Source of the DNA: Dehalococcoidia bacterium
GTDB lineage: Bacteria > Chloroflexota > Dehalococcoidia > Lucifugimonadales > UBA3495
NCBI GenBank assembly: GCA_963422635.1
Contig: OY730415.1
Span: forward strand, 1,073,231-1,137,230
Direction: 5' to 3'
Length of the DNA stretch: 64,000 nucleotides
Shown here: one piece after another, positions 4,884 through 63,930 of the stretch
How positions within the stretch are numbered: the stretch's first letter is position 1
How the letters are laid out: every line of letters starts with the position of its first letter
Notes under the pieces: model-generated
What the model was told of the DNA's origin: nothing
Databases searched by the model: none
What the model saw: only the letters and a program-made list of their open reading frames with translations
Program-made: the position numbers and the translations under genes

Positions 4884-6169
4884 TTATTTGCCCCACACCG
4901 ACATTGAATGGTCCTGGGATATGTATTCACCGTCCTTGCCCCGAGGATAGGCGAGGCCCAAAGAGACCGCGCCCGGGGCGCAGCCGACAATAGTTACCGT
5001 ATCGCCGGGGCCGAGAAGTCGGCCCTCCTCATCGCCCCCGGGACACCGGTCAAAAGCGATATTGCCAGCATCCGAAAGCCAGGGGGCGTGGTTGACAATC
5101 ACCCGAACGCCCGGCGGGTTTGGCAGTAGGCTGTTCAACGTAAAAACCCGGGATTGTCCCACCTTCAGCGCGGACGGCGGCGGCGTCAGGCTGACTCGAA
5201 AAGGACGGGGTTCCCCCACTTCGATGCGGAAGGGTCGCACCTGTTTAGCGCCCGCGTACAGGTCGGCCCATGCCTCGCCTGGGGAACAGCGTGACTGCAT
5301 CCATCATATAAGCTCAACTCCCGTCGGCCCATGCCTCGCCTGGGGAACAGGCGGTAATGGTTACCATGTCCCCATTATGGTAAGTCCCCCCTTCCCCGAT
5401 GGCCCCGGGGCAATTACCGAGGGACAAGTTGCCCGCATCCCCCGGGCGATTGAGGCTCAAACGCGCTCCCGGCGGGTCGGGGAGGTTAGTATGTATGATA
5501 AACTCCTTCGATTGTCCAACTTCGGGGTACCATATAGGCCGCCATTTGGAGTCGCAATCGGGTGGGCAGGGCGCCGATAGGGGGACCGGCGGCCCTTCAA
5601 TGCTTGTAACCCCCTCTTGCCTAGACAACTCGCCCAACAAAGCGACGGGCGCATAGAGGCGTAAGCTGCCGGTGAGCCAATAATCCCCGGCGGGATATTC
5701 ATATATTCCCTGGGGATAAAGCTTTTTCCCTTCCAGCCATTCAACCACCTTTTCCAGGTTGCTGGTCAGGTAAACTTTGACATTTTGATGGGCCGGTTCC
5801 AGATAAGCGTCCTCAGCCAAACGAGGATAGTACCCCTGCTCCAGCGCCAACACTAGATATTCCAGGTCAGTATCCAGGCCGGGATAAGTAGGCGTAGGTT
5901 TGGGGTAATCAGTAAAACAGTCCTCTTCGAACCGAAAAGAGCCATCTTCCAGCTTCCTTACCCCCCCGATGCATGTAGTAGGAAGCGGAGTTGAAGCAAC
6001 GACCGGCGTTTCGGCCAAAGATGCGCCGCCTTTGAGGACGCCGCTGGGTTGGATGGACTGCCGGGCCGCAACTAATCGCCGCCAACAGCAGCGCGGACGG
6101 CAAGAGTAGTAAGGGAAGAAGGTAGCGTAATAGCCCGCCGTTTTCTTTTAACCTGAGGATTGAAAGCAT
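4884..6169 (-). pseudogene. lipoprotein gene with two similar Cys-containing modules, disrupted twice
   Basis: A signal peptide with lipobox (MLSILRL...LLAAISCG) is in one frame (start 6169/6184). The body (5314-6018) is in the +1 frame. The body is then cut by a 61-nt insertion at 5290-5350, leaving the tail as ORF 4884-5300. Confidence 0.6.
5262..5350 (-). repeat. repeat-insert-repeat unit S1 (28-nt direct repeat x2 around a 33-nt insert)
   Basis: Identical 28-mers at 5262-5289 and 5323-5350 (minus strand CTGTTCCCCAGGCGAGGCATGGGCCGAC). Period 61. Confidence 0.95.
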
Positions 6170-6329
6170 GCCTTCCCCCACCATGCCTTTACATTTAGAG
6201 TCTATGTTAGCTTACGCCTTGTCATAGCGTCGAGTTAGCATCGGGAGGGCTATTTTTCACCGGTACCAGCGGGGCAATTGCGTTCGGCGCCCTGCCCGCA
6301 AGGCGGAATTAAACTGCTCGCCCGGCAAA

Positions 6330-6416
6330 ACGTCGCCCATCGCCGGGGGGTTAGACTCTGGAGCTATCGCCAACTAGTCGAACTACTATACGTCGCCCAT
6401 CGCCGGGGGTTAGATC
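6330..6416 (-). repeat. repeat-insert-repeat unit S5 (imperfect: 26/25-nt repeat around a 34-nt insert)
   Basis: ACGTCGCCCATCGCCGGGGG(G)TTAGA at 6330-6355 and 6390-6414. The copies differ by one G in the G-run. Intergenic. Confidence 0.7.
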
Positions 6417-6562
6417 CTTCACTGCTTCAGGAGGGGCCGAGGCGCAGGTCAGGGCGACAGCCAGCTTTCCGGGCGGCTGTTGTTTTAGCCGCCCACTCCC
6501 CTGCCGGGACGCCTTCTGGCGCCGCATCTTCCTGTCCCGTCAACTGGGCGGCGGCCCACGCC

Positions 6563-7117
6563 CTAAATGGGCAGCGCCGCCTCGGCGCGCTCCTCGGGCA
6601 GGTCAATCAGGAAGGTGTTGGCGTTAAATGCCAGCAGCGCATAGTATCCCATCAGGGTGCAAAGCTCGGTCAGCCCTTGCGCCCCGAACTGGTCAAGGGC
6701 GGTCTGAAAAGTTTCCTGGCTGACTTTATGGGTCTGGAAAAACTCGGCGGCCAGGCGGACTACCGCCGCCTCGTCGGGAGGCAGGTCGGGCAAGGGCTGA
6801 CCATCCCGCAGGGCATCGACAAAGGCGTCGCTGATTCCCTGTTCCCGGGCCCGGGCGGCGTGGGCGTTCCAGATAAATTGGCAGTCGTGGGCGCGGGCCG
6901 TAACAATCATCGCCAGTTCCTGGATTCTCTTGGGCAGGGCGGATTCGTCCCGCAGGTAGTTGACCAGCGAATTGGCCCGGCGACGCATTTCCGGGCTGTT
7001 AATCATCGCCGAACCGGGGCCGCTGGCAACCACGCCGCCGCTATCGGAAGTTTCGGCGTCGAAGGCGGCGCGCAAATTCTCGGGAACCTGGTCGCGGGTA
7101 ACTATAGGCGTTCGCAT
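6563..7117 (-). CDS. carboxymuconolactone decarboxylase (CMD/AhpD-like) family protein
   Basis: 184-aa ORF. ...TARAHDCQFIWNAHA... matches the family pattern. A paralogue lies at 45399-45950. Confidence 0.8.
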   Translation of the reverse strand: MRTPIVTRDQVPENLRAAFDAETSDSGGVVASGPGSAMINSPEMRRRANSLVNYLRDESALPKRIQELAMIVTARAHDCQFIWNAHAARAREQGISDAFVDALRDGQPLPDLPPDEAAVVRLAAEFFQTHKVSQETFQTALDQFGAQGLTELCTLMGYYALLAFNANTFLIDLPEERAEAALPI

Positions 7118-7422
7118 AACGTTTTCTCCCGGTGAATGAATGATTTGCTGAGGGGTTAGACTGGCTGCTTATGATTCATCATAGGCTGGGGTAATCCGGG
7201 TTGGCAAGGGTTGGGCTAGGATTGGGTCGGAGGCGCGCCCTGCGACTTTTCAAGGAACATCCCGCGAAAATGAACGGCGCCCCACCGTCTTTCCATCTTT
7301 CGCCGGAAAGACGGTGGGGCGGGCAAACTAACCCGGCCTACTTCGGCCAACCCGGTTTGCTTTCCCTGAGCGGCTTTGCTACACTCTGGCTAGTTGCCCA
7401 CTTTCTTAATTGGGGGTTCCTG

Positions 7423-62819: not shown

Positions 62820-62861
62820 AAGCCAGCCCCGGCGGAATTGCCTTTCCGCCGGGGCTGGCTT
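62820..62861 (+). terminator. terminator-like hairpin after the MaoC pair
   Basis: 17-bp perfect stem AAGCCAGCCCCGGCGGA / TCCGCCGGGGCTGGCTT with an 8-nt loop. Weak T tail. Confidence 0.55.
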
Positions 62862-62949
62862 ATAACCGTTGCTAACGACCGGGCTGACCGTCGCCGCTGC
62901 CGGCGCGCTTTACGCCTCGCCGCCAGCTCTCGCCTCCAAAGCAAACTCC

Positions 62950-63039
62950 CTGGTCTCCCCGCTGGCCTAGGTCGTCGCATTCATTAGTGCGTCCATATCA
63001 TCATCGGTAACTGGTCTCCCCGCTGGCCTAGGTCGTCGC
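62950..63039 (+). repeat. repeat-insert-repeat unit S2 (29-nt repeat x2 around a 32-nt insert)
   Basis: CTGGTCTCCCCGCTGGCCTAGGTCGTCGC at 62950-62978 and 63011-63039. Period 61. Confidence 0.95.
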
Positions 63040-63216
63040 CTCAATGGTGTAGCTGCCCGCCGGCAGCGATTCCAGCGCCCGCCGAGAGTCGGTTCCCCCG
63101 GCCGGGTCGTCATCATTACTACCTACCACCGCCCTTCCCTTCCCTTCGCCCTTCAGCCGGTACCGGAAGTCGTCAGTGTCGAAAGCAAGGTCGATGACTA
63201 CTTCCGTATCCGCCAC
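63028..63216 (-). CDS. short ORF resembling the end of a pre-peptidase C-terminal (PPC)-type beta domain; probably a gene fragment
   Basis: ...FRYRLKGEGKGRAVVGSNDDD...ESLPAGSYTIEATT. GTG start directly after a stop. The upstream region has no clean reading frame. Confidence 0.3.
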   Translation of the reverse strand: MADTEVVIDLAFDTDDFRYRLKGEGKGRAVVGSNDDDPAGGTDSRRALESLPAGSYTIEATT

Positions 63217-63614
63217 GAGGCTAAATCCCTAAAAGCGGGCAGAGTTCCCTGTCCGTTAGCCGAAACGCAACTCTCGTCCGCTCTTGACCTTTCAGCCGTC
63301 CCTTCCCCCCAGCCGGTCAGACAATCCGAAGCTGGGACCAGCCCCAAGCCCGCCACGACGGGAGACGCCTGGCTGGTTCCGCGACGTGTCCGTGCCGTGC
63401 TCTCTGTCGTACTCGTCGCTGATGCGCTCGTCGCGGTGTCCCGACGTGTCCGTGCCGTGCTCGTCGCTGATGTACTCGTCGACGATGCGCTCCATGCTAT
63501 GGTCGTTGCTATTTCCGACTCCAGCAGCGCATCCTCGGTTTGGCTGTCAACAATTTCCCGCGCCCGGATAACGCCGGGCCGCTCCGAAGCCTCGCCCAAC
63601 AACGACACCGGCAC

Positions 63615-63930
63615 CTAGGCCTTCAGGTAATCCTCCCCCACGTTCCGCGGGGCGCCCAAAGAGGGCCAAAAAGTCGGCCCGGCGGTACCATCCTCCCCCA
63701 CGTTCCGCGGGGCGCCCCCACGGGCATTCAGAAACTGCTGATATTCTCCGACTCAACCCAATCGGGCAAAGGGCGCCCCCACGGGCATTCAGAAACTGCC
63801 GCAACTCTTCAACGCTTTCAGTCAAGTAAAAGGTAATCGCCACCGGATTAACTTGGTGAATTGGCGAGCCGTCGGCGCTTTCCCCCTCCGACCCTCGCCC
63901 CGCTTCATACTGAGCCACGGCTCGGTTCAA
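63615..63930 (-). pseudogene. small ORF whose 3' end is interrupted by units S3/S4
   Basis: TTG start at 63930. Removing the 61-nt S4 unit puts ...EELRQFLNARGGAPRNVGED...YLKA and TAG (63615-63617) in frame. Confidence 0.35.
63630..63799 (+). repeat. two overlapping repeat-insert-repeat units S3 (28+32+28) and S4 (29+32+29)
   Basis: S3 is ATCCTCCCCCACGTTCCGCGGGGCGCCC at 63630 and 63690. S4 is GGGCGCCCCCACGGGCATTCAGAAACTGC at 63710 and 63771. Confidence 0.95.

Follow-up and report, generated by a model that had tools for sequence, protein, structure and literature searches.

Five repeat-insert-repeat units with type I-E geometry in a Dehalococcoidia chromosome: probable footprints of off-target spacer integration

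The stretch of DNA analyzed here, a 64-kb window of the chromosome of a Dehalococcoidia bacterium (contig OY730415.1 of assembly GCA_963422635.1, positions 1,073,231 to 1,137,230 of the forward strand), carries five short units in which a single insert of 32-33 nt lies between two copies of a segment of local sequence about 28 nt long. These units, designated S1 to S5, are in our judgment best explained as footprints of off-target spacer integration by a Cas1-Cas2 integrase with the geometry of a type I-E CRISPR system, an attribution that we consider probable without regarding it as settled. Staggered integration by Cas1-Cas2 of type I-E leaves a 28-nt duplication around an insert of 32-33 nt (33 bp). 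The same attribution had been put forward in a sequence-only reading of the window. The geometry, the uniqueness and composition of the inserts, a run of C residues at the target sites, and the interruption of a gene by S1 support it in part; neither a protospacer with its protospacer-adjacent motif (PAM) nor an insert-free allele was found in the viral, plasmid, genome, metagenome and protein collections searched. Members of the class Dehalococcoidia are documented to have type I-E systems (PMC8516407), and Nivala et al. 2018 (as cited in bioRxiv 10.1101/148544, PMC7054753, and PMC6698737) are reported to have seen in vivo off-target integration by the Cas1-Cas2 of the Escherichia coli type I-E system, which yields what are termed neo-CRISPR units. 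On this reading the units described here represent a phenomenon already known, though with few natural examples, at an unusually high density, and they do not constitute a system of a new kind.

Results

Geometry of the five units

S1 lies on the minus strand at 5262-5350, where a 33-nt insert (5290-5322) is flanked by repeats at 5262-5289 and 5323-5350 (28+33+28). Three units lie on the plus strand at the other end of the window. S2 (62950-63039) has repeats at 62950-62978 and 63011-63039 around an insert of 38% GC at 62979-63010 (29+32+29). S3 (63630-63717) has repeats at 63630-63657 and 63690-63717 with its insert at 63658-63689 (28+32+28), and S4 (63710-63799) has repeats at 63710-63738 and 63771-63799 with its insert at 63739-63770 (29+32+29). 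S3 and S4 overlap, the last 8 nt of the second S3 repeat being also the first 8 nt of the S4 unit, and in the uninterrupted (empty-site) sequence the two target sites are 20 nt apart, that of S4 being downstream. All five units were found where the sequence-only reading had placed them, and the repeat copies of S1, S2, S3, and S4 are perfectly identical.

S5, on the minus strand, had been described as an imperfect unit of 26+34+25. The unit exists and is imperfect, and it is better fitted as 28+32+27, spanning 6328-6414 with repeats at 6328-6355 and 6388-6414 and an insert at 6356-6387. Its repeat copies differ by one substitution and by a run of five versus six G residues. Since homopolymer error is present elsewhere in the assembly, the difference in the G-run is uninformative; it need not reflect age and may have arisen in base calling.

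The duplication amounts to 28 nt per unit, or 29 nt in S2 and S4, where one neighboring base matches by chance. The 28-29 nt duplication characteristic of type I-E neo-CRISPR units is therefore present throughout, in S5 only when one substitution and one indel are allowed. The insert measures 32-33 nt in all five units.

Rarity of the pattern

A direct-repeat scan of the window, in which exact matches of at least 14 nt at offsets of 30-150 nt and of at least 18 nt at offsets of 151-5000 nt were collected, returned these five units as the only spaced, non-tandem direct repeats, every one of them at an offset of 60 or 61 nt. The other matches were tandem head-to-tail arrays, with periods of 30, 42, 64, and 71 nt, and one in-frame protein repeat of period 60. 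The latter, D13 (63375-63462), is a sixth period-60 repeat that the sequence-only reading did not list; it encodes an in-frame 20-aa repeat (DEY.SDEHGTDTS...) in a small open reading frame (ORF) on the minus strand. D13 was rejected as an integration unit on two grounds: its middle part is identical to the adjoining flank at 24 of 32 positions, and its repeat is in frame. The tandem repeats of periods 64 and 71 were also rejected as members of the class.

Allowing up to six mismatches in 28 added no older, degenerate units within the window. The same scan, applied to 270 kb from 25 Dehalococcoidia or Chloroflexota loci, found no comparable unit, and the possibility raised earlier that a period-61 pattern might be common to other genomes found no support in these related loci.

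Properties of the inserts

Within the window there is a single copy of each insert, as the sequence-only reading had held in describing the inserts as unique rather than multi-copy. Identity between the inserts and their flanks ranged from 4 to 14 of 32-33 positions, with a null mean of 8.3, and was at background level in nine of ten comparisons. The best match, that of the S4 insert to its downstream flank (14/32), had an uncorrected p of 0.025 as one of the 10 tests. Homology between insert and flank, as expected of a tandem duplication, was thus seen in D13 and in none of S1-S5, whereas a unique, spacer-length insert unrelated to its flanks, as in neo-CRISPR units, was seen in all five. Between inserts, shared words do not exceed 6 nt, and between the inserts and common sequencing adapters they do not exceed 7 nt. 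Terminal inverted repeats were sought in the inserts and were absent, with matches at 1-3 of 10 terminal positions.

Three of the inserts had been said to be poorer in G+C than their surroundings. For the inserts as a group the mean G+C is 0.49 compared to 0.596 for host 32-mers (P=0.009), and the hand counts first reported for four of them (16/33, 12/32, 20/32, and 15/32) were confirmed on recount. Such uniqueness and AT-richness are what captured foreign fragments would look like.

A C-run common to the target sites

The duplicated segments were compared in the orientation proposed by the sequence-only reading. C was present at positions 6, 8, and 9 in all five segments and at positions 7 and 10 in four, and G was present at position 22 in all five; no conserved flank was detected around the five target sites. 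Five conserved columns in a row arise in random site sets with P~5e-5, a value that precedes a 16-32-fold correction for the choice of orientation. At four of the five sites position 6 is precisely where a run of at least four C residues begins, for which the background is 0.01 per site when either strand is allowed. The earlier alignment of the C-run in the I-E register holds for these four; S2, which had been read as offset by 2, is rather in register with a single T within the run (C-T-CCCC).

In minus-strand orientation, the S1 target reads CTGTT-CCCC-AGGCG..., and the S3 target, ATCCT-CCCCCACG-TTCCGCGGGGCGCCC, is the closest of the five to an I-E repeat. The S4 target, GGGCG-CCCCCACG-GGC..., carries the 8-mer of S3 at the same offset. 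When both strands of the reconstructed empty-site window were counted, CCCCCACG occurred four times, and two of these occurrences served as target, at an identical offset, in the neighbors S3 and S4. The C-run of S1 and S3 has a mirror-image counterpart, a G-run that stands 5 nt from the opposite end of the segment. Type I-E repeats start with GAGTT-CCCC-GCG... in E. coli and with GTAGT-CCCC-ACG... in Thermus. The C-run at positions 6-10 is common to all five sites and to both of these repeats, with which the comparison was made.

Genes and sequence context at the insertion sites

The host gene of S1 (4884-6018, minus strand) is present as two fragments, one at 5314-6018 encoding 234 aa and one at 4884-5300 encoding 138 aa. 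Its product, which is lineage-specific and looks secreted, contains two internal repeat domains and belongs to no Pfam family. In-silico excision of one repeat and the insert, which reverses a frameshift of +61, joined the two ORFs into one frame of about 400 aa, and the homologue P0003 (387 aa, 36% identity) aligned without a break over the junction. Because excision restores the ORF and the homologue spans the junction, we conclude that S1 is a frame-breaking insertion in a previously intact gene. When the restored protein was searched against the protein collection, only the window's own fragment and homologues of 36-38% identity were returned.

The remaining units occupy different contexts. 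The TAG stop codon of a small minus-strand ORF (63028-63216) falls inside the repeat of S2, and the S2 insert therefore lies just 3' of that ORF. S5 is intergenic, between a CMD-family gene (6563-7117) and the S1 host gene. S3 and S4 are located in the C-terminal part of a small ORF, for which, once restored, no homologue was found in the protein collection; the small ORFs also had none in the related loci compared. The suggestion that such events inactivate genes consequently stands for S1, where the frame is split, and not for S2, which lies past a stop codon, for the intergenic S5, or for S3 and S4, whose ORF is without a homologue. Both clusters are in lineage-specific sequence, of which relatives keep only the neighboring MaoC pair and the CMD gene, and the window as a whole is ordinary chromosome with metabolic enzymes, transporters, three tRNAs, one insertion sequence (IS), and one methylase-HNH gene.

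Searches for insert-free alleles and protospacers

Two checks named in the sequence-only reading, for insert-free alleles in related genomes and for the inserts in viral and plasmid databases together with a PAM, came back empty. Among GTDB representative genomes, searched by way of the MaoC neighbor, the best relative was 84% identical in amino acid sequence, and conservation at the DNA level was limited to the MaoC pair. No exact S3 repeat was present in JGI metagenomes, where the CMD neighbor was at best 80% identical in amino acid sequence and not syntenic; the protein collection likewise contained no insert-free form.

For phages and plasmids, the inserts were queried as one concatenated sequence separated by Ns, and no match was obtained even at E<=10, for which the Ns may be responsible. 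The S2 insert, queried alone, gave only chance matches with E>=0.9. Exact scans of IMG/VR with the inserts returned nothing. As the lineage is an uncultivated one of soil or sediment, the lack of matches in phages, plasmids, and IMG/VR is uninformative. With Rfam, at gathering as well as permissive thresholds, nothing relevant to the units was found.

Weighing of the explanations

Several considerations weigh against off-target Cas1-Cas2 integration. The window contains no cas gene and no canonical array, as had been noted from the start. No protospacer match above chance was obtained in INPHARED phages, PLSDB plasmids, or IMG/VR, and hence no PAM could be derived; nor do the 33-nt inserts show a consistent PAM-derived first base. 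The genome, metagenome, and protein collections yielded no real insert-free allele, the nearest relatives there being 80-84% identical in protein sequence. No natural report comes near a density of five events per 64 kb, and the five fall in two patches of about 1 kb, with uniform orientation within each patch. Some 820 other CCCC sites in the window are untouched, and some of these are more like an I-E repeat than the sites used. Finally, the G-run of S1 and S3 stands 5 nt from the end, whereas in the E. coli I-E repeat it stands 7-8 nt from the 3' end.

Several of these points would suit a non-CRISPR form of insertion, by a nuclease or integrase whose cuts, staggered by 28 nt, fall beside C-runs and which captures short DNA fragments during repair, or by an array-free Cas1-like integrase. 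Nothing in the window or the searches (cas gene, array, or protospacer) ties the units to CRISPR, their density and clustering are unlike those of the reported natural neo-CRISPR cases, and the apparent dyad symmetry of S1 and S3, with the C-run and G-run each 5 nt from an end, differs from the E. coli I-E layout. To our knowledge, however, only CRISPR adaptation yields a 28-nt duplication with a unique insert of 32-33 nt, and the duplication length, the insert length, and the position of the C-run all coincide with those of type I-E. We regard such an agent as unlikely, though worth keeping in view. An artefact of assembly or polishing is more doubtful still. The source is a single 2.64 Mb contig from a long-read metagenome assembly, and residual errors exist in it, as a conserved gene is frameshifted at a homopolymer in at least one case. 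We know of no error mode, however, that inserts a unique 32-33 nt between exact 28-nt duplications; the inserts contain no adapter sequence, the sites have a position-specific motif in common, and the units are irregularly positioned, unlike errors of chunk stitching.

A 60-61 nt unit might instead have been duplicated in tandem or by replication slippage, with partial divergence of one copy afterwards. This has precedent in the window, which contains true tandem duplications (periods 64 and 71) and the in-frame repeat D13, and the match of the S4 insert to its downstream flank also speaks for it. The repeats, however, are 100% identical in S1-S4 beside inserts that in all but that one comparison match their flanks at background level; divergence cannot be confined to exactly 32-33 nt; and units of 61 nt break the frame in coding sequence. 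Because the inserts are unique, unrelated to their flanks, and devoid of terminal inverted repeats, we take slippage or tandem duplication, as well as a small transposon family, to be ruled out, and slippage has the least to recommend it of all the explanations considered. Scarcely more credible is the proposal that the units are functional mini-CRISPR arrays or CRISPR RNA (crRNA)-like regulatory RNAs, or else tiny transposable elements with target-site duplications. Repeat-spacer-repeat mini-arrays do exist in viruses and near cas loci (PMC8616872), but the repeats here differ between loci, give no Rfam CRISPR-DR match at E<=10, and fold no better than shuffled sequences, S2-S4 have no promoter-like site, and the inserts have nothing in common with one another. 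A canonical CRISPR array was rejected because, the C-run aside, none of the five repeats is related to another and there are exactly two copies of each, and a transposable element with target-site duplication was rejected on the poor match of the insert termini and the lack of other copies in the window.

Other features of the window

The scan and the annotation of the window also recorded features apart from the five units. A thiamine-pyrophosphate enzyme gene (43535-45243, minus strand) is in two overlapping frames, with an apparent missing C in CCCGGGG near 43965; this break suggests a residual homopolymer error of the long-read assembly or a real pseudogene. At 21498-21689, a 64-nt unit is present in 2.5 copies in an R-S-R-S-R arrangement, with a 30-nt segment and a 34-nt AT-rich segment carrying TTGACA-like boxes. 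Its geometry is not 28+32, it lies directly upstream of a tRNA gene (21696-21769), and it has the look of a promoter region that was duplicated. Another tandem repeat, perfect and with a 71-nt unit in 2.4 copies (59392-59560; 27+44 nt, again R-S-R-S-R), whose 27-nt part begins ATAGTTCCCTTCCC, starts at the stop codon of a luciferase-like monooxygenase gene (58355-59395).

Two paralogous triads, each comprising an NHL-repeat beta-propeller, a DUF1501 protein, and a DUF1800 protein, are encoded on the minus strand at 868-4588 and 14238-18126. The gene at 33947-35167 (minus strand) encodes a fusion of an N6/N4 DNA methylase with an HNH nuclease domain, and the coiled-coil ORF adjoining it (region 33947-36583) contains a 42-nt repeat in five copies, corresponding to 14 aa, at 35868-36080. 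In a region whose local GC is low at 0.535, a tRNA gene (55211-55285) is followed closely downstream by a gene for an IS-type DDE transposase (55890-57161), and 55211-57161 may be the edge of an integrated element. A strong palindrome at 62815-62865, which follows the MaoC-like gene pair (stop at 62777) and scores on both strands under permissive Rfam thresholds, is probably a terminator hairpin.

Discussion

In the mechanism that we favor, a Cas1-Cas2 integrase loaded with a 32-33 bp prespacer would carry out two staggered strand transfers 28 bp apart at chromosomal sites. The sites chosen would be those in which a C-run lies 5 nt inside one cut, as a mimic of positions 6-9 of the I-E repeat; in many of them a G-run would mirror it close to the opposite end. 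Gap repair would then duplicate the 28 bp between the cuts, and each event would leave a one-spacer "neo-array" having local chromosomal sequence as its repeat, which is why the repeats would differ between loci. The prespacers themselves would have come from foreign DNA. Purifying selection might have allowed only events in dispensable DNA to survive, and could in this way account for the clustering.

The duplicated segments fold no more stably than shuffled sequences (z of -0.4 to +1.1, compared to -3.6 for the E. coli repeat). As they lack a hairpin of the Cas6e type, the units probably do not work as crRNA genes and are inert scars.

In engineered E. coli, the integration of spacers at off-target sites has been shown well, whereas the natural evidence is circumstantial and comes from a couple of species. 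Such integration is the leading idea for the birth of new CRISPR arrays, and a hidden cost of adaptive immunity. Five fresh, clean events in a wild genome would give a natural read-out of the preference of the integrase for a C-run 5 nt inside the cut. S1, with its gene demonstrably split, would show directly how the adaptation machinery can do damage by insertion, and the units would offer a place to see whether scars mature into arrays. The clustering and density could point to hotspots or to a loss of leader or IHF-type control.

A bolder extension, to which we give little weight, is that the lineage has undergone, or is undergoing, a burst of mis-integration of spacer-sized DNA across its chromosome, the agent being either an I-E integrase freed from array or leader control or a non-CRISPR integrase with a 28-nt stagger guided by C-runs. 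Were this true and the window typical, the 2.6 Mb genome would hold on the order of a hundred or more events, and the capture of short DNA would act as a natural insertional mutagen and as a source of new arrays.

Neo-CRISPR units were reportedly observed in E. coli by Nivala, Shipman, and Church (2018, Nat Microbiol 3:310), and putative cases from nature are reported for Yersinia pestis and Sulfolobus islandicus. The present units resemble those of E. coli in having one spacer-sized insert between repeat-length duplications of local sequence and in that the events can land in genes. The E. coli targets only partly resemble the native repeat, and likeness was judged here against the E. coli and Thermus repeats. 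Unlike the E. coli work, the setting is an uncultivated Dehalococcoidia genome without overexpression, and unlike the known neo-CRISPR cases, five events occur within 64 kb in two tight clusters, and the searches identified no protospacers for them. With the canonical E. coli I-E array, which has a 29-nt repeat (GAGTTCCCCGCGCCAGCGGGGATAAACCG) and 32-nt spacers, the units share a period of 60-61 nt, 28 duplicated bp, and a C-run from position 6; unlike such an array, each unit has its own "repeat" and a single spacer, with no hairpin, leader, or adjoining cas genes. In having one spacer and two repeats away from cas genes, they also resemble the mini-CRISPR arrays of viruses and proviruses and crRNA-like mini-arrays (PMC8616872; bioRxiv 10.1101/2023.03.03.530964). 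Those mini-arrays, however, are functional, with repeats the same as or close to those of the resident system, whereas the repeats described here are ordinary chromosomal sequence specific to each unit.

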